DNA of 49,833 nucleotides from Escherichia phage phi2013: the sequence record MT427400.3; one strand, written 5' to 3'. The notes under the pieces are model-generated. The model saw nothing but the letters and a program-made list of their open reading frames with translations. It was not told where the DNA came from and made no database searches. Shown here piece by piece: positions 3,166 through 41,482 of this stretch; position 1 is the first letter of the stretch; each line of letters begins with the position of its first letter. The position numbers and the translations under genes were made by a program.

Positions 3166-3372
3166 ATGGCTACACGACTAACTCAGTGGCAGATTTACGA
3201 CAAGGCCTCACGCCTTCGTGAATCGCTTCGCGGACTGACGCCGAATGACCGAATGGAGATTATCGGGCACGCATTGCACGAACTAACATCTCAGGACGTA
3301 ATCTATCATTCATGCGGCAATAAATTCTGGAACGTGACATTCGAGGTAAAGAAAGATGAGCAAAACTCATAA
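3166..3372 (+). CDS. hypothetical protein
   Basis: start chosen at ATG 3166 after SD cagaggaa (track ORF begins 3124). Confidence 0.45.
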   Translation: MATRLTQWQIYDKASRLRESLRGLTPNDRMEIIGHALHELTSQDVIYHSCGNKFWNVTFEVKKDEQNS

Positions 3373-3643
3373 GTTAAAAATCGCCCCGATACATTTCATT
3401 GGTGTAATGAACGGAACCAAAACGGCAGAGTTCCGCATCAATGACCGCAACTTCCAGGTTGGTGATATCCTTGAGCTACGCGAGTTCGATCGTGACGACT
3501 TTACCGGGTGGGAAGTTCACGCCAGGGTGTCCGATGTTACAGACGTGACGCCATACATCAATCGCGGTTATGACGAGCAAGAATGCGACTTCACGCAATA
3601 CGTGATGTTATCAATCAAGCCTTACAGGAAGGTTAGACCATGA
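3356..3643 (+). CDS. ASCH/DUF3850-like (PUA-fold) protein
   Basis: 95 aa; pattern GxKTAEFRxNDRxFxVGDILxLxE recalled as typical of DUF3850/ASCH. Confidence 0.55.
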   Translation: MSKTHKLKIAPIHFIGVMNGTKTAEFRINDRNFQVGDILELREFDRDDFTGWEVHARVSDVTDVTPYINRGYDEQECDFTQYVMLSIKPYRKVRP

Positions 3644-4278
3644 AATTTGAGTGCGTATCAAGTAGCGGATCTGGTTTTAAGTGGGGAAAAACTTACAAAG
3701 GTGTTCGCGTAAATGATGACAGCTTCATCATTACTGATGAGAACGGTTGCAACGTGAACGTTGTACGGCGTCACGAATATCAGGAAATTTTCCTGCCTTA
3801 TGGCGGTAGCTCAAAATATATCTTCCATCGAATCGTGGATGGTGTTAAATTTAACGACGTAATCGAAGCAATCAACCAACTGCATAATAAAGAGGTAAAA
3901 TTTATGAAATTCGAATGTATCAGCGACAACACTAAAAAATTTACCGTTGGAAAAATTTACAACGTTCCTTCTGAGCACGCTAAGCACACTTTAGCGCTGA
4001 CCGACGACACAGGCTGCCAACGCATTGCAACCGTGACGCACAATGGCGAAGGTCTTCGCTGGAACAGCGGCGGCACTAAGTTCGCAACTTTCGGTAAGAA
4101 GCGCAAGCGCAATTTCCGCGTCAACGGCAAGATCAACACCAGCAAGATTAGCAACGTCAAGCCTATTAATGTTGACCACAAGCCAGAGCTTGATCTTAAA
4201 GGCAAGGTGGATATTCCTGATATGGCTTTAGCGATCCTTATTCTTGTTGCTCTAATTTCTATCATGCTCATCATGTAA
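3640..4278 (+). CDS. hypothetical protein with internal tandem duplication and C-terminal transmembrane anchor
   Basis: two copies of MKFEC(V/I)S...GK(T/I)Y(K/N) about 85 aa apart; C-terminus MALAILILVALISIMLIM hydrophobic. Confidence 0.55.
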   Translation: MKFECVSSSGSGFKWGKTYKGVRVNDDSFIITDENGCNVNVVRRHEYQEIFLPYGGSSKYIFHRIVDGVKFNDVIEAINQLHNKEVKFMKFECISDNTKKFTVGKIYNVPSEHAKHTLALTDDTGCQRIATVTHNGEGLRWNSGGTKFATFGKKRKRNFRVNGKINTSKISNVKPINVDHKPELDLKGKVDIPDMALAILILVALISIMLIM

Positions 4279-4285
4279 TTTTAAC

Positions 4286-4319
4286 GGGGAATTGGCTCTG
4301 AGCGGTTCCCCTTTCTTTT
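4286..4319 (+). terminator. rho-independent terminator
   Basis: gggga...tcccc stem followed by TTTCTTTT. Confidence 0.5.
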
Positions 4320-4426
4320 GGAGAAAACACTATGCCAGACTTTTCTAACTGGAATAACGAGCCGCCATCATTTCAGGAGTTGCTATTCTGCCTCCTGGTC
4401 CTGACATTATCTCTTAAGGGTGTTTT

Positions 4427-4645
4427 ATGGCTACTATCATAACAGCAGAAGATGCAGCACGCGACGCAGTGGAAGGAATGCGCCCAAATACCTCCAGAAT
4501 AGCACACTACTACAAATCTGAGGTGTCGGCAGTGCAATTGGTCAACGAAATTTTAAGGCTACCACAAGTCGATTCAGCGCGCGTGGTGACGTGCTTAAAA
4601 AATTATTTTTGCATCGCTATTAAAACGAATAGCACGAATTGCTAA
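4427..4645 (+). CDS. hypothetical protein
   Basis: 72-aa ORF. Confidence 0.4.
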   Translation: MATIITAEDAARDAVEGMRPNTSRIAHYYKSEVSAVQLVNEILRLPQVDSARVVTCLKNYFCIAIKTNSTNC

Positions 4646-4672
4646 AACCTATCAAGGGGAATGCGCTATGAT
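4630..4672 (+). promoter_or_regulatory. early promoter cassette
   Basis: tagcacgaattgctaaaac; 22-bp spacer with gggaat/attccc dyad; TATGAT 4667-4672. Confidence 0.5.
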
Positions 4673-4702
4673 TCCCATGCACCAACAAACGAGGAAGCAC
4701 TC

Positions 4703-5149
4703 ATGAAACACTTAATTTGCATTGAAACGCCTAACGACCAGCACACCCTGCACGGCATTGGAATGTTCAAAGGTCACTACATGACAGCAAGTATTCATGA
4801 TTCGCGTTGCGTCAATGGCGATCTGATGATTACGTCAAAAGAAGTAACTCCGTACATTATGCAGAATCTTGGCAATAACGAATATATGGCCTACGGATGC
4901 AATGCGGTGTACAAGCATATCAAGATCAGAAAACGCGTTGTTCGCGCATTCAAGAAAATTGCAATGAAACAATGGAAGATGAGCAAGAAAGATGCTGGAC
5001 GCTGGGCGCGTAACGTTGCAGATTCATACTTCTACCGTAACGGTGAGTCCTGCCACTTCCTTATCGATGAACTTATGGAAAACTACGGCGGCGACTTCAG
5101 TCAGGGTGGCTTTGACGCTTGGGCTGACTACGAGGTCGATTACTGGTAA
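4703..5149 (+). CDS. hypothetical protein
   Basis: start at ATG 4703 after SD acgagga; 148 aa. Confidence 0.5.
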   Translation: MKHLICIETPNDQHTLHGIGMFKGHYMTASIHDSRCVNGDLMITSKEVTPYIMQNLGNNEYMAYGCNAVYKHIKIRKRVVRAFKKIAMKQWKMSKKDAGRWARNVADSYFYRNGESCHFLIDELMENYGGDFSQGGFDAWADYEVDYW

Positions 5150-5192
5150 TAGCACGAATTGCTAAAACTTGCTCAAGGGCATTTGATAGAAT
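5150..5192 (+). promoter_or_regulatory. early promoter cassette
   Basis: tagcacgaattgctaaaac; 22-bp spacer with agggcat/atgccct dyad; TGa-TAGAAT 5187-5192. Confidence 0.5.
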
Positions 5193-5232
5193 GCCCTTCG
5201 TTGAGTTAAGCAACCAATCAGAGGAATAAATC

Positions 5233-5844
5233 ATGGATAAAATTACCATTTGGGGCCAGACAATCAACCTGTTTCTCGGCACGCGCCGCGTAGCAATCTT
5301 TGACTTTGATGGAACACTTAGCGATGGATCTGGTCGACTTCACCTGCTACCTACAAAGGATTTGCACTTAACTGAAAGCTGGTCCGAGTTTAACCGCGCG
5401 GCAATATTTGACAACCCTATCCAAAGCACGATCGATGTGATGAACTCTATGTATGCCGCTGGTCATCATGTGATCATTTTAACCGGGCGAAGTGATGAGG
5501 TGCGTTACGCATCTGAGTTGTGGCTTAAGCATCACGGCGCTCGATATGATTACCTGATTATGCGACCATACACCGATAACCGGAAAGACACAGTAATGAA
5601 AGAAGAGGCGGTGCGCGCGATCGGCATTGATAACATTCTGGCGGCCTGGGATGACTCACCGCAAATTATTCCATTATTCCGCTCACTTGGAATAACCACT
5701 TACGCTGTAGTTGACTATGGCGATAAAGTTCACGATCATTTAAAATCTCACGGGGTAGATGAGGTTTGCAATCATGAACCATCTGAGCCGCTACCGCCAT
5801 TTGGTGAGAAAATTTGCATTAAGTGCAAGGAGTTATTGAAGTGA
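5233..5844 (+). CDS. HAD-superfamily phosphatase, polynucleotide 3'-phosphatase-like
   Basis: DxDGT motif (FDFDGTLSDG), ILTGRS, RKDTVMKEE; recalled as resembling the T4 Pnk phosphatase domain; C-terminal CxxC...CIKC. Confidence 0.6.
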   Translation: MDKITIWGQTINLFLGTRRVAIFDFDGTLSDGSGRLHLLPTKDLHLTESWSEFNRAAIFDNPIQSTIDVMNSMYAAGHHVIILTGRSDEVRYASELWLKHHGARYDYLIMRPYTDNRKDTVMKEEAVRAIGIDNILAAWDDSPQIIPLFRSLGITTYAVVDYGDKVHDHLKSHGVDEVCNHEPSEPLPPFGEKICIKCKELLK

Positions 5845-5952
5845 ACCTATACGAATTTATTGCAGCACATCCGGTACTAACAGTTATCATTCTGTTAATC
5901 ATAAACTCCACCATCATCAATGTGGCGAAATTATTTTTAGGGAGATACTGAC

Positions 5953-6525
5953 ATGAAAACAGCTATCATTTTAAACGGTGCGCCTGGCGCGGGAAAAGAC
6001 ACTATAGGGTGCATCCTGGCTGACACTTACGATCATGTAGCGCTACGCAGCTTTAAAGCTCCAATGTTTGAGATTGCCCGAGCAATCCTGGGTGAGACTA
6101 ATTTTGAGTATTTCATGTTCTTGTATGAGGACCGTCGCTATAAAGAAGAGCCAGCATCAATCCTGAACGGTAAAAGCCCGCGCCAGTTTATGATCTGGAT
6201 TAGCGAGGAGGTTATCAAGCCGCAGTTCGGAAATCGCTTCTTCGGTATGCGAGCGGAAAGCAAGGTGAAAGAGTCTCACTCCCTTTCGGTATTTACTGAC
6301 GGTGGATTCAAAGACGAAATCTTGCAGATGATTGAAGGTGAAATCCAGGTCAAGCTATGTCGAATCCATCGCAACGGTTGCAACTTTGACAACGACAGTC
6401 GCGACTACATCTATCTTGACGATATGATCGGGGTCAACGGTTATCAGGAATGTGACTTCTTCTCTGTCGAAGGTCATCCAGAAATTACCGCTCAGCACAT
6501 AGCCGCCACGTTCATCAACAAATAG
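5953..6525 (+). CDS. P-loop nucleotide kinase, dNMP kinase-like
   Basis: Walker A GAPGAGKDT at N-terminus; LNGKSP motif recalled from T4 gp1-type dNMP kinase. Confidence 0.6.
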   Translation: MKTAIILNGAPGAGKDTIGCILADTYDHVALRSFKAPMFEIARAILGETNFEYFMFLYEDRRYKEEPASILNGKSPRQFMIWISEEVIKPQFGNRFFGMRAESKVKESHSLSVFTDGGFKDEILQMIEGEIQVKLCRIHRNGCNFDNDSRDYIYLDDMIGVNGYQECDFFSVEGHPEITAQHIAATFINK

Positions 6526-6565
6526 CACGAATTGCTAAAACGTCGGTGGGGTGACTTGATATAGT
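6523..6565 (+). promoter_or_regulatory. early promoter cassette
   Basis: tagcacgaattgctaaaac; 22-bp spacer; TGa-TATAGT 6560-6565. Confidence 0.5.
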
Positions 6566-6597
6566 TACCTCATCGACAACGAAGAGAGAAAATCGAA

Positions 6598-6807
6598 ATG
6601 ATGGTATCAACTGATAAGTTTTTCACTTGCACTAAAACTTCTGAAGTATTCGAACTGGTTCATACTGATAATGGTGACTTCATGCATGACGGTTGCGACG
6701 TTTTCATTGAAGTGAAAGAAAGCGACTATGACTATGGGGTTTATTATAACCCGGCAGTGAACACTCAGTTTTTTACACCGATCGAAGAGGAAGGAGAAGA
6801 AGCATGA
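6598..6807 (+). CDS. hypothetical protein
   Basis: 69-aa ORF; stop overlaps next start (ATGA). Confidence 0.45.
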   Translation: MMVSTDKFFTCTKTSEVFELVHTDNGDFMHDGCDVFIEVKESDYDYGVYYNPAVNTQFFTPIEEEGEEA

Positions 6808-7148
6808 TCACGATTAACCTGTCAGATAAACAAGCGCGTGAAATCCTCGATACTATCGGCGAACAGCTTCACGTAAAAGGCGCTACCGCTGAGATTCTTA
6901 ACCAGATCGAAAGACAGCTAACCCCGGTGTCGACGAATCAGGCTGAGTTCTCAATCTGGAAAAGCGAGCGAATCCTGCCAAATATCATCAAGGCATGGAA
7001 GCGCAAGAATAAAAAAGAAATCAATGTTGATGACTTATTTTCTGATGAATTAAGTCCTTCAAAGGTTGCTCAATATCAGTTGCGATACATGGAATCAGTT
7101 TGCAATCAGGTTTTAAATGTCAACTTTTCATTCGGGAGTGGTAAATAA
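6804..7148 (+). CDS. hypothetical protein
   Basis: 114-aa ORF, translationally coupled. Confidence 0.5.
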   Translation: MITINLSDKQAREILDTIGEQLHVKGATAEILNQIERQLTPVSTNQAEFSIWKSERILPNIIKAWKRKNKKEINVDDLFSDELSPSKVAQYQLRYMESVCNQVLNVNFSFGSGK

Positions 7149-7378
7149 TGTTTGGTTTAAGTGAAGCGGAATGGAACGTGGTAAAGCGCGCGGCGAAGGA
7201 ATTGAATAAATTCGTTAGCGGAATGAAGAAAGAAGATCGCAAAAACGAAAAGATTATGATTGATGTGATCTCAACTCATCACAAAAAGGTTGAGCTACTC
7301 ATCGACCGCTACAAGTTTGTATGGACCGCCGGATATATTGCAGGGCGCGTAGGTAACAAAGAGGGTGATTACGAATAA
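7148..7378 (+). CDS. hypothetical protein
   Basis: 76-aa ORF, overlapping start/stop. Confidence 0.5.
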   Translation: MFGLSEAEWNVVKRAAKELNKFVSGMKKEDRKNEKIMIDVISTHHKKVELLIDRYKFVWTAGYIAGRVGNKEGDYE

Positions 7379-7581
7379 TGGCTAACTTACCGAAGAAAGG
7401 CGATCAGGTTCGATGTGTTACATCACGCAATGGTGATGCTTTCTCAGCGGGATGCTTGTATGACGTTGAAAAAGTAAGTAAAGCAAAGAGACTCGTATTT
7501 GTATACGGAGACGATGGAAATATTCATGAGATTGACTACCCGCAGGATATTACTAAGGGCCAATTTGAAATTAATGATTGA
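7378..7581 (+). CDS. hypothetical protein
   Basis: 67-aa ORF, overlapping start/stop. Confidence 0.5.
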   Translation: MANLPKKGDQVRCVTSRNGDAFSAGCLYDVEKVSKAKRLVFVYGDDGNIHEIDYPQDITKGQFEIND

Positions 7582-7745
7582 CCTGAATCTCTGAGCGGTG
7601 ATAGTATTAATCCCGTAGACAGACGAGGCGCAAATAAGCGCAACGCGTGAGACGATTCTCACACTTCCAGCTAACAAGCTCGGTTGCATAGTGGTTAAGC
7701 AACGCCGCAGACCCGTAAGCGGCAACAATTCAAGAGGATTGCATA

Positions 7746-7907
7746 ATGCAAAAAACTAAAGACGAATCAGTCAAAATTGAAATTAAAGTAACTCGCAACG
7801 GTGAAACCACTAGTTATAAAAAACGATTAAATCCTGGCGAGGCTGTTATTGGTCGCATTGCTGGCGTTATGATTAAGGCGCAGGAAGATGAAGCGATTCA
7901 AAGTTAA
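7746..7907 (+). CDS. small hypothetical protein (53 aa, below track cutoff)
   Basis: SD aagagga 6 nt before ATG 7746; open to TAA 7905-7907. Confidence 0.3.
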   Translation: MQKTKDESVKIEIKVTRNGETTSYKKRLNPGEAVIGRIAGVMIKAQEDEAIQS

Positions 7908-8073
7908 ATTAATTATTCGAAAGATGGGAATGTTTTGCCAGTCGTGCAAGCAATCTTTCGAAACTGAATTATCAGCAACCAGTCAGGATGAAGCCATCAC
8001 GAAAGCAAAAAAACTTTCCGGCGCTAACCTTGACACTCACAAAATAAATATTGAATTAATCAAGGAGATTTAA
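7888..8073 (+). CDS. hypothetical protein
   Basis: 61-aa ORF, Cys pair CQSC. Confidence 0.4.
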   Translation: MKRFKVKLIIRKMGMFCQSCKQSFETELSATSQDEAITKAKKLSGANLDTHKINIELIKEI

Positions 8074-40330: not shown

Positions 40331-41482
40331 ATGTCACAAGCTAAAATCACTACCGAGCAACTTGTCGAAGAGCGCATGAACGGCCTTACACTTCGCGAGA
40401 TCGCGGAAAAGTACGGTATGCATATTCGAACTGTTGAGGCTCGACACGCAAAATTGGCAAAAGAAGGCCACTTTCACGGCAATGAGCATGTTGCTAAAAA
40501 CGTTCCTGAAGGCTTCATGGTAAAAGGCACATCAACAATGATTCGCGGTGATGGGACTGAGGTCGTGCGATGGGTTAAGACCGATCAGGACCGTGAGAAG
40601 ATTGCAGCTATGATGGAAGCTGCACGCATTGCATTTTGTGAAGACTTGCCGCGAGCAAAGCCAACTGAGCTGCTCACATCGCAAGGTCTTACAACCTCTA
40701 TTGGAAAGCTGGCACTATACCCGGTGTTCGATCTTCACATTGGCGCGCTTGCTCATAAGCATGAATGTGGAGAGAACTACTCTACCGACGTAGCGGAAAA
40801 AGTGCTTAGCGACTTCTTTAATTACGCGATCGATATTGCTCCGAACGCAGAGAAGGCCGTTCTTTTAATCGGCGGTGACTTCCTTCACTCGGACGGTCTT
40901 GATGCTGTTACCCCGGCAAGTGGTCACGTTCTGGATCAGGATTCACGATATGCAAAATTGGTGCATGTAGCTATTAGATCTGTTCGTCGCGCTATCGACA
41001 AAATGCTACTGAAACACAAAGAAGTCGAGGTCCAGGTTATCGAAGGGAACCACGATCAGTCTGGGATGATTTGGCTGCGCGCTGCAATGTCGGCATATTA
41101 TGAAGACGAGCCGCGAGTATTCGTTGACGTTAGTCCTATGATTCTGCATAAGACTCGTTGGGGAAATACCTTGTTGGGATACACTCACGGGCACACTATG
41201 AAAAAGGCAGAGACTCGACTCGCAGCTATGGCAGCAGATTTCCGCGCAGATTTTGGTGAAAGCAAATACGTGTACACGCATAGCGGTCACTGGCATCACC
41301 AGACAATCACTGAGCACTCACTCGGTATTGATGAGGTTCACGGCCAGTTAGGCGCGAAAGACGCATACGCAGCACGAGGAGGGTGGCGCTCGTATCGCCA
41401 GGCGGCTGTAATTGTTTACGATAAGCAATTTGGGGAAATCGGTCGTTTCATCTATCGTCCAGAAATGACAGGATCGCACTAA
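40331..41482 (+). CDS. calcineurin-like metallophosphoesterase with N-terminal HTH
   Basis: GDFLH, GNHD, GH and GHWHH metallophosphatase motifs; N-terminal LTLREIAEKYGMHIRTV helix-turn-helix. Confidence 0.65.
   Translation: MSQAKITTEQLVEERMNGLTLREIAEKYGMHIRTVEARHAKLAKEGHFHGNEHVAKNVPEGFMVKGTSTMIRGDGTEVVRWVKTDQDREKIAAMMEAARIAFCEDLPRAKPTELLTSQGLTTSIGKLALYPVFDLHIGALAHKHECGENYSTDVAEKVLSDFFNYAIDIAPNAEKAVLLIGGDFLHSDGLDAVTPASGHVLDQDSRYAKLVHVAIRSVRRAIDKMLLKHKEVEVQVIEGNHDQSGMIWLRAAMSAYYEDEPRVFVDVSPMILHKTRWGNTLLGYTHGHTMKKAETRLAAMAADFRADFGESKYVYTHSGHWHHQTITEHSLGIDEVHGQLGAKDAYAARGGWRSYRQAAVIVYDKQFGEIGRFIYRPEMTGSH

Follow-up and report, generated by a model that had tools for sequence, protein, structure and literature searches.

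The closest described relatives of the two genes reported here come from phages T4 and T5. The phosphatase domain of the T4 polynucleotide kinase-phosphatase (Pnkp) works with Asp165 as nucleophile, Asp167 as acid/base, Ser211 and Lys258 as phosphate contacts and Asp278 as metal ligand (PMC3592404). T5 encodes Dnk, a biochemically characterised deoxynucleoside monophosphate (dNMP) kinase and a member of the Pfam family DNMK, and Dmp, a characterised deoxynucleoside-5'-monophosphatase that influences virulence and the pools of deoxynucleoside triphosphates (dNTPs) and is an escape target with regard to the Clover defence (10.64898/2026.04.02.716235; PMC12265719). Phages T1 and TLS degrade the host DNA and reuse its nucleotides (PMC11447400). 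Here, we describe two neighbouring genes, a HAD phosphatase and a P-loop kinase, in the early block of the T1-like coliphage phi2013 (Escherichia phage phi2013, sequence record MT427400.3; the whole stretch of 49,833 nucleotides analysed is called the window). On balance, and with moderate confidence, we favour the view that they form a nucleotide-recycling module for the breakdown products of host DNA and do not serve the repair of broken RNA. The paper on phage KanT1 independently proposed that this pair enhances the nucleotide supply (PMC13164509). The features of the locus are as follows.

5233 to 5844, plus strand: open reading frame (ORF) of 203 aa, a stand-alone Pnkp-type HAD phosphatase (DxDxT).
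5953 to 6525, plus strand: ORF of 190 aa, a P-loop nucleotide kinase from a sister family of Pfam DNMK.
5221 to 5225, plus strand: Shine-Dalgarno sequence GAGGA, 7 nucleotides 5' of the HAD ATG, as read from the sequence.
5940 to 5944, plus strand: Shine-Dalgarno sequence GGGAG, 8 nucleotides 5' of the kinase ATG, as read from the sequence.

An earlier reading made from the letters alone (the sequence-only reading) had picked out both ORFs, and they are real genes. They lie at the stated coordinates on the plus strand with the quoted motifs in place, are preceded by Shine-Dalgarno sites and have widespread homologs. By megablast, the region 4600–7200 was matched in 120 phage records, and in 58 of these the match spanned at least 80% of the query; identity was 100% to Enterobacteria phage vB_EcoS_IME167, 99.9% to JMPW1 and ~90–94% to many other Tunavirus (T1-like, Drexlerviridae) genomes. 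The pair is surrounded by small early genes with no assigned function and is located upstream of the terminase genes.

The HAD ORF contains the motifs FDFDGT, LTGRS, DNRKDTVMKEE and WDDS and ends in the tail VCNHEPSEPLPPFGEKICIKCKELLK. Its product was assigned to phrog_415 and matched the Pfam family HAD_PNKP (PF25109) with 60.2 bits against a cut-off of 27.6, over profile positions 3–138 of 143. It aligned with residues 157–296 of T4 Pnkp at 27% identity over the whole domain, the profile comparison of the two gave 97.4% probability over 138 columns, and the nearest HAD structures in a fold search were the Pnkp phosphatase domains. The catalytic set of the window protein consists of D24 as nucleophile, D26 as acid/base, T84, K123 and D140/D141; in the alignment D165, D167, S211, K258 and D278 of T4 correspond to D24, D26, T84, K123 and D141, and each of these positions is either invariant or conserved to at least 90% across the alignment of the HAD family. 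The window HAD is thus a Pnkp-type phosphatase by family with its catalytic residues intact, which agrees with the likeness to the T4 3'-phosphatase domain that had been suggested from its motifs. Homologs of the HAD_PNKP family were found by tblastn in 1,736 phage genome records.

The window HAD shares the fold, the HAD_PNKP family, the DxDxT nucleophile and acid/base, the Ser/Thr of motif II, the Lys of motif III and the Asp-Asp of motif IV with T4 Pnkp (pseT; PDB 1LTQ, 5UJ0) and with Capnocytophaga Pnkp1 of Pnkp1/Rnl/Hen1 (4XRP). It differs from T4 Pnkp in being a phosphatase alone, without the N-terminal AAA_33 kinase domain, and in two additions, a conserved insertion of ~11 residues that follows motif I and the optional Cys tail; furthermore, its partner kinase comes from another family and no ligase accompanies it. 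Because neither Pfam nor PHROG profiles found a kinase domain in this protein, the labels “polynucleotide kinase” and “3'-phosphatase, 5'-polynucleotide kinase” are misnomers. Of the parts of a T4-type bifunctional Pnkp, the window has the HAD phosphatase and neither an AAA_33/phrog_505 kinase beside it nor a ligase.

The kinase ORF starts with MKTAIILNGAPGAGKDT, has the Walker A motif GAPGAGKDT, as had been noted, and contains ILNGKSPRQF. Its family is invariant at N8, K15, D16, K35, R61, K64, R77, S84, E85, K89, D116, G118, F119, E122, R140, D148, S149 and R150. Pfam and NCBIfam gave only P-loop matches to the window kinase, all below threshold; Pfam DNMK (PF21448) did not match it or four distant family members at E ≤ 1, although T4 gp1 and T5 Dnk scored 358 and 43 bits with the same model; and a sequence search of PDB returned nothing significant. 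AAA_33, the Pfam family of the T4 Pnk kinase domain, did not match the window kinase at E ≤ 1, only the P-loop aligned with T4 Pnk, and the T4 Pnk kinase belongs to phrog_505 and not to phrog_139. The window kinase matched phrog_139 (“dNMP kinase”) at 2e-46 in the same profile region as T4 gp1. When gp1 or T4 Pnk was compared with the kinase family as a single sequence, hhalign aligned the P-loop only, and the homology to gp1 beyond the P-loop was seen with the alignment of the gp1 family, with hhalign values of 97.3% (local, 146 columns) and 98.3% (global, 188 columns). The best structural match was 1DEK, with a two-domain fold and a helical NMP-binding domain. T5 Dnk was also detected by the profile of the window family, with 38% identity to the window kinase across the first 55 residues. 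Being homologous to gp1 and Dnk and negative with the Pfam model, the kinase therefore belongs to the gp1/Dnk superfamily as a separate clade outside Pfam. This clade is large, with 4,294 cluster representatives at 50% identity in an exhaustive search (E ≤ 1e-3) and homologs under many different names in 1,424 phage genome records by tblastn.

The sequence-only reading had likened this protein to a T4 gp1-type dNMP kinase, which holds as far as full-length homology is concerned (phrog_139, hhalign and 1DEK) and fails with the Pfam DNMK model. The motif LNGKSP, on which it had leaned, does occur as a hexapeptide at gp1 residues 90–95. It was rejected as a motif of the gp1 family since it is not conserved across that family, and the identity is coincidental because the gp1 copy lies in a T4-specific insertion that is not matched to the window LNGKSP in the profile alignment. 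The motifs truly common to both proteins are GKDT, S-x-R-x-x-M, D-x5-E and the lid R...D-S/T. Both are also early genes of phages that degrade host DNA, and PHROG 139 and the GKDT P-loop are common to the window kinase, T4 gp1 (1DEK/1DEL) and T5 Dnk. Compared with gp1, the window kinase is 50–60 residues shorter and lacks the gp1 insertion at about residues 70–125. The residue roles given for gp1 (1DEK) in Table 2 of PMC10653934 were mapped onto the window kinase with the following result.

ATP site: the GKDT P-loop is kept and gp1 R197 is kept as R140; none changed.
dNMP phosphate ligands: R68 is kept as R61 and R132 as R77; K37 is changed to F39 and R177 to G118.
Sugar contact: M135 is kept as M80.
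Aromatic pocket: W152 is kept as F97.
Base contacts: D175 is kept as D116 and E181 as E122; T140 is changed to E85.
Lid: D204 is kept as D148; H206 is changed to Y152.

With respect to gp1, the window family has invariants of its own at K35, K64, E85, K89 and R150, and G118 is invariant as well.

The two genes are linked across phage families. In neighbourhood samples, which held at most 80 loci each and were biased by the search patterns, the HAD was found upstream of the kinase on the same strand in 74 of 80 kinase-centred loci of the Drexlerviridae type, with gaps ranging from overlapping frames to ~2 kb. When the loci were centred on diverse HADs of the subfamily, this kinase was downstream in 78/78 and a kinase of the T4 Pnk type in 0/78; the set includes Aeromonas phages and SP6/K1-like Autographiviridae of roughly 41–45 kb, and in many of its loci the gp1-family hidden Markov model (HMM) matched an ORF, not necessarily the kinase, at E ≤ 1e-3. 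Distant kinases showed no such HAD within 8 kb in 67 of 78 loci, so the kinase does not depend on the HAD and the linkage is one-way, from HAD to kinase. Two arrangements were seen: in one, as in the window, the HAD and the kinase lie a few kb before the gene for the small terminase subunit, and in the other they form a compact cluster with a gene annotated as “DNA repair exonuclease” (25 Drexlerviridae loci). The two genes have therefore changed place together, a point also made in PMC13164509. Aeromonas phage 25AhydR2PP (Autographiviridae) has an exonuclease, an endonuclease VII, a metallophosphoesterase, the HAD and the kinase in a row with overlapping stops and starts, by which the HAD and kinase of the Aeromonas Autographiviridae are predicted to be translationally coupled. 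In addition, natural HAD-linker-kinase fusions were found in two diverged proteins with a common linker motif, P0217 (403 aa) and P0231 (461 aa). P0217 is present on three contigs of the Logan assemblies, the longest of 60.7 kb and phage-like in gene context; a search for the fusion protein in IMG/VR returned nothing.

These findings bear on the possibility that the two are independent early enzymes without functional coupling, neighbours only through inherited synteny in replication or early-gene modules. The kinase stands alone in most lineages, 0.6–2 kb of other genes separate it from the HAD in many Drexlerviridae, four genes do so in TLS (PMC11447400), and a scan for promoters and terminators yielded no evidence of an operon. 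Against it, order and strand are invariant, no HAD-centred locus lacked the kinase, the pair has changed its genome position together, it recurs with overlapping stop and start codons in Autographiviridae, and fusions occurred in at least two diverged proteins. We therefore regard an absence of coupling as very improbable. The scan itself (4300–7300) was at chance level, with 6 found against 5.8 expected and 3 against 2.9, and is thus uninformative on operon structure.

The exonuclease of the compact cluster has an ortholog in the window, which is a candidate third partner.

40331 to 41482, plus strand: phrog_704 “DNA repair exonuclease”, 383 aa, matching phrog_704 at 1.9e-156.

In this genome the gene is unlinked to the HAD-kinase pair. 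By eye, its product shows the calcineurin-type motifs DLHIG, GGDFLHSD, GNHD, HGH and GHWHH and an N-terminal segment like a helix-turn-helix; sequence searches of Pfam and PDB with it gave no match. Orthologs of phrog_704 stand immediately upstream of the HAD and kinase in the 25 Drexlerviridae loci and immediately downstream of the fusion P0217, where the homolog is 44% identical to the window protein. From this distribution we infer that it may act as a partner of the pair. Homology between the phrog_704 metallophosphoesterases and those of the Aeromonas phages (phrog_221) was undetectable by BLASTP.

The nearness of the HAD to true end-healing phosphatases, T4 Pnkp and the Pnkp1 of Pnkp1/Rnl/Hen1, raises the alternative that the pair is a non-canonical split, sometimes fused, polynucleotide kinase-phosphatase that heals DNA or RNA ends broken by host nucleases or defence systems. 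The HAD would remove a 3'-phosphate or 2',3'-cyclic phosphate, the gp1-fold kinase would phosphorylate the 5'-OH, and a ligase of host or phage would seal the ends. The domain order of the fusions is that of mammalian PNKP, in which the phosphatase precedes the kinase. Neighbours of the kinase family include phosphoesterases with three different folds (HAD, calcineurin-like and HD), the three with which polynucleotide kinases are paired in the Pnkp of T4, Clostridium thermocellum and phage RM378. Among 35 non-redundant loci, a calcineurin-type phosphoesterase is directly upstream of the kinase in 6, an ATP-dependent DNA ligase directly downstream in 4 and an Rnl2-type ligase within two genes in 2, and some loci with the order metallophosphoesterase-kinase-ligase are reminiscent of C. 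thermocellum Pnkp, whose domains run kinase-phosphoesterase-ligase. The invariant acidic E85 could also act as general base for a 5'-OH acceptor. The likeness to C. thermocellum Pnkp and mammalian PNKP, which likewise combine a P-loop kinase with a phosphoesterase, is an architectural analogy only, as the kinase here is built on a dNMP-kinase scaffold and not on the Pnk/Clp1 type. Moreover, the window kinase keeps most of the conserved mononucleotide pocket and shows no relatedness to Pnk kinases beyond the P-loop, and a tblastn search of the window with five ligase types gave nothing better than E 0.18, in line with the remark of the sequence-only reading that no RNA ligase is visible. End healing is thus unlikely here, though a plausible alternative.

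Comparison with T5 brings in another alternative, as Dmp and the window HAD both belong to phrog_415, and Dnk and the window kinase both to phrog_139. In a T5-like antagonistic pair, the HAD would be a Dmp-like 5'-deoxynucleotidase destroying some dNMPs while the kinase advances others, and the dNTP pools would be re-balanced, possibly with evasion of host defences that sense or deplete nucleotides. The role of Dmp in virulence, dNTP pools and Clover escape would fit such a function, and the window HAD and Dmp have in common an insertion following motif I (DLxL...N.A), which is absent from T4 Pnkp and could be a small cap favouring mononucleotides. Furthermore, a YfbR-like HD 5'-deoxynucleotidase (PHROG “dATP triphosphohydrolase”) is directly upstream of a stand-alone kinase at 7362–7988 of locus L117, which adds a third phosphoesterase fold to the phosphohydrolases paired with the kinase. 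The direct similarity of Dmp to the window HAD is weak and distant, confined to the region of motifs I and II (hhalign 26% over 68 columns, HMM 7.8 bits), and Dmp has no Pfam HAD_PNKP match, so the window HAD is far nearer to T4 Pnkp. The fusions and the translational coupling are hard to account for if the HAD is a 5'-nucleotidase, since one fused to a kinase for the same nucleotides would burn ATP in a futile cycle. In addition, T5 discards the host nucleotides, whereas T1 recycles them (PMC11447400, 10.64898/2026.04.02.716235). We consider pool shaping of this kind quite unlikely for the window pair.

T5 also has the metallophosphatase A1, which is encoded in one operon with dmp and is both required and sufficient for degrading host DNA (10.64898/2026.04.02.716235); dmp and dnk themselves are not neighbours in T5. 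Besides this metallophosphatase, T5 thus encodes a HAD of phrog_415 and a kinase of phrog_139, the families of the window pair, and its HAD and A1 mirror the metallophosphoesterase-HAD-kinase clusters of T1-like and Aeromonas phages. A1 showed no significant similarity to the phrog_704 (T1-like) or phrog_221 (Aeromonas) metallophosphoesterases; since the enzyme class alone is common, the parallel is an analogy only.

The sequence-only reading had offered end healing against host anticodon nucleases or a dNMP phosphatase/kinase pair shaping the nucleotide pools; with both set back as above, recycling is the reading that we moderately favour. The metallophosphoesterase-type nuclease at 40331–41482 would be the probable supplier of fragments and mononucleotides. 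The HAD, as a Pnkp-type, Mg2+-dependent aspartyl-phosphate phosphomonoesterase, most likely strips 3'-phosphates from the nuclease products (3'-dNMPs, pdNp or 3'-phosphorylated oligonucleotides), which would let the breakdown finish and yield 5'-dNMPs for the kinase. The kinase, as a gp1/Dnk-like (deoxy)nucleoside monophosphate kinase, would use ATP to convert the dNMPs of the degraded host chromosome into deoxynucleoside diphosphates, and host Ndk would convert these into dNTPs, from which the host polymerase would make T1 DNA. The family membership of both proteins, their intact catalytic residues, the gene linkage across phage families and the fusions are shown, whereas we infer the substrates, the 3' regiospecificity of the HAD, the part played by the nuclease and the connection with reutilisation of host DNA. 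Recycling is favoured because host nucleotides are reused, host enzymes replicate the phage, and the pair and the metallophosphoesterase-type exonuclease are the only nucleotide-handling proteins that the phage encodes. The linkage and fusions of the two genes speak for it as well, as do the nucleotide-pool enzymes beside stand-alone kinases (ThyX, the serine hydroxymethyltransferase and the YfbR-like 5'-deoxynucleotidase), the coupling of a stand-alone HAD to nrdB in a Krischvirus and the place of Dmp in phrog_415. We prefer a 3'-specific HAD to a 5'-nucleotidase like Dmp because the protein is much closer to T4 Pnkp and because a 5'-nucleotidase fused or coupled to a dNMP kinase would make the futile cycle described above.

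Several points weigh against recycling. Both enzyme activities are predicted ones, and phrog_415, which holds the HAD, also includes the 5'-nucleotidase Dmp. The failure of the kinase with the Pfam DNMK model is a point of the same kind, and its acceptor may differ from a 5'-dNMP because two of the four dNMP-phosphate ligands of gp1 are gone and the family has its own invariants. The independence of distant kinases from the HAD and the bias of the neighbourhood samples count here too, and the ligases and other phosphoesterases beside some kinases fit end repair equally well.

A wider proposal, which we put forward tentatively and think unlikely, is that HAD_PNKP with a DNMK-fold kinase, paired or fused, forms an unrecognised class of bifunctional 5'-kinase/3'-phosphatase on a dNMP-kinase scaffold, which with the metallophosphoesterase would make up the T1 pathway for degradation and reuse of host nucleic acid. 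Such a class might act on polynucleotide ends, as a third independent Pnkp architecture, or carry Np through pNp to pN.

Annotations of both genes exist in many genomes, and the pair was noticed in a 2026 paper, which put forward “nucleotide supply” as a guess. Within the literature searched, the following points appear to be new: that the “PNK” is a phosphatase only, that the kinase represents a large and distinct sister clade of DNMK without a Pfam model and with changed acceptor ligands, that the HAD is obligately linked to the kinase and not the reverse, that the two occur as natural fusions, and that the cluster of three genes recurs. The database label “polynucleotide kinase” is wrong for the T1-type gene, the product of which is a phosphatase only, and the true kinase next door, from a large phage family without a Pfam model, is often labelled “hypothetical”, “ATPase” or even “phosphomevalonate kinase”. 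The metallophosphoesterase-HAD-kinase cluster offers three concrete candidate genes for the degradation and reuse of host DNA by T1 and TLS. Bacterial defences such as Clover and dNTP-depleting systems sense or counter phage nucleotide-pool enzymes, and therefore the substrate specificity of the module could affect host range in a phage family that is commonly used in therapy collections. In one paper from the anti-phage defence literature, a dNMP kinase is mentioned once, with reference to T7 gp1.7 and not to the window kinase family.

The spacer between the two genes and the C-terminus of the HAD carry further features.

5841 to 5951, plus strand: predicted hydrophobic micro-ORF VNLYEFIAAHPVLTVIILLIINSTIINVAKLFLGRY of 36 codons, exactly filling the HAD-kinase spacer.
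5764 to 5841, plus strand: CxH...CxxC tail of the HAD VCNHEPSEPLPPFGEKICIKCKELLK, 26 aa, an optional module and putative small zinc-binding knuckle.

The GTG of the micro-ORF overlaps the HAD stop (GTGA) and its stop is 1 nucleotide before the kinase ATG, an arrangement that may couple the translation of the HAD and the kinase. The peptide is kept, with an ATG start, in close Tunavirus relatives, and T1 (L007, 5475–5926) has a different insert of 451 nucleotides, carrying an AP2-like ORF, between HAD and kinase. The borders of the pair were seen to be insertion hot spots across many Drexlerviridae loci. A 204-bp ORF is inserted just before the HAD start in Shigella phage phiL (L002, ~3628–3837), where the HAD is annotated as a shortened 408-bp gene; the insertion precedes the start codon and does not interrupt the gene itself. 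In phage Eco_BIFF, the HAD locus carries an annotated HNH endonuclease.

The C-terminal Cys cluster pointed out earlier is present in the window HAD, where it turned out to be an optional module. In an alignment of 74 related Drexlerviridae HADs it occurs in 8 as a clean in-frame indel of 78 nucleotides (26 codons) and is missing from that of T1. The homolog P0129 has two copies, and some HADs carry a different C-terminal domain of ~60 aa in its place. The structure model is of low confidence here (predicted local distance difference test ~62–68), and zinc binding by the tail is putative, as judged from its residues.

Stand-alone members of both families were also seen. Near stand-alone kinases, the nucleotide-pool enzymes ThyX, serine hydroxymethyltransferase (SHMT) and the YfbR-like HD 5'-deoxynucleotidase were found, as well as FEN-like and RuvC-like nucleases and glycosyltransferases. 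Seven metagenomic phage contigs (L098, L106, L143, L154, L155, L158 and L162) represent one lineage in which a RuvC-like nuclease, a small ORF, the kinase, a WYL_2 protein and glycosyltransferases of the GT25-like and GT4 types are encoded in a conserved cluster; this may be a context of DNA base hypermodification needing a dedicated dNMP kinase. Escherichia phage Ec_Makalu_001 (L250, a T4-like Krischvirus) has a stand-alone HAD_PNKP-type phosphatase at 3498–3974 with 35% identity to the window HAD. Its gene overlaps the nrdB stop, where an nrdA-nrdB unit ends, and is coupled to nrdB in translation; the protein is closer to the window HAD than pseT is, and the second match of the HAD query in this genome, located elsewhere, is presumably pseT.

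The wider genome was also surveyed. The annotation of the relative EF3-1 lists a primase, helicases, RecE/Erf-type recombination genes, methylases and the “DNA repair exonuclease”, and no DNA polymerase, ligase or further nucleotide-metabolism enzyme; a scan of the window for transfer RNA genes found zero. An ASCH-domain protein (phrog_986, “RNA-binding protein”) is encoded on the plus strand at 3356–3643; it belongs to the same early block and lies ~1.6 kb before the pair. It is followed at 3640–4278 (plus strand) by an ORF of 212 aa which by eye is an apparent tandem duplication of a unit of ~85 aa (MKFEC...GKxY...D.G C) with a C-terminal transmembrane segment after it. By eye, this unit resembles the extra C-terminal domain of the HAD homologs P0188, P0191, P0196 and P0200.

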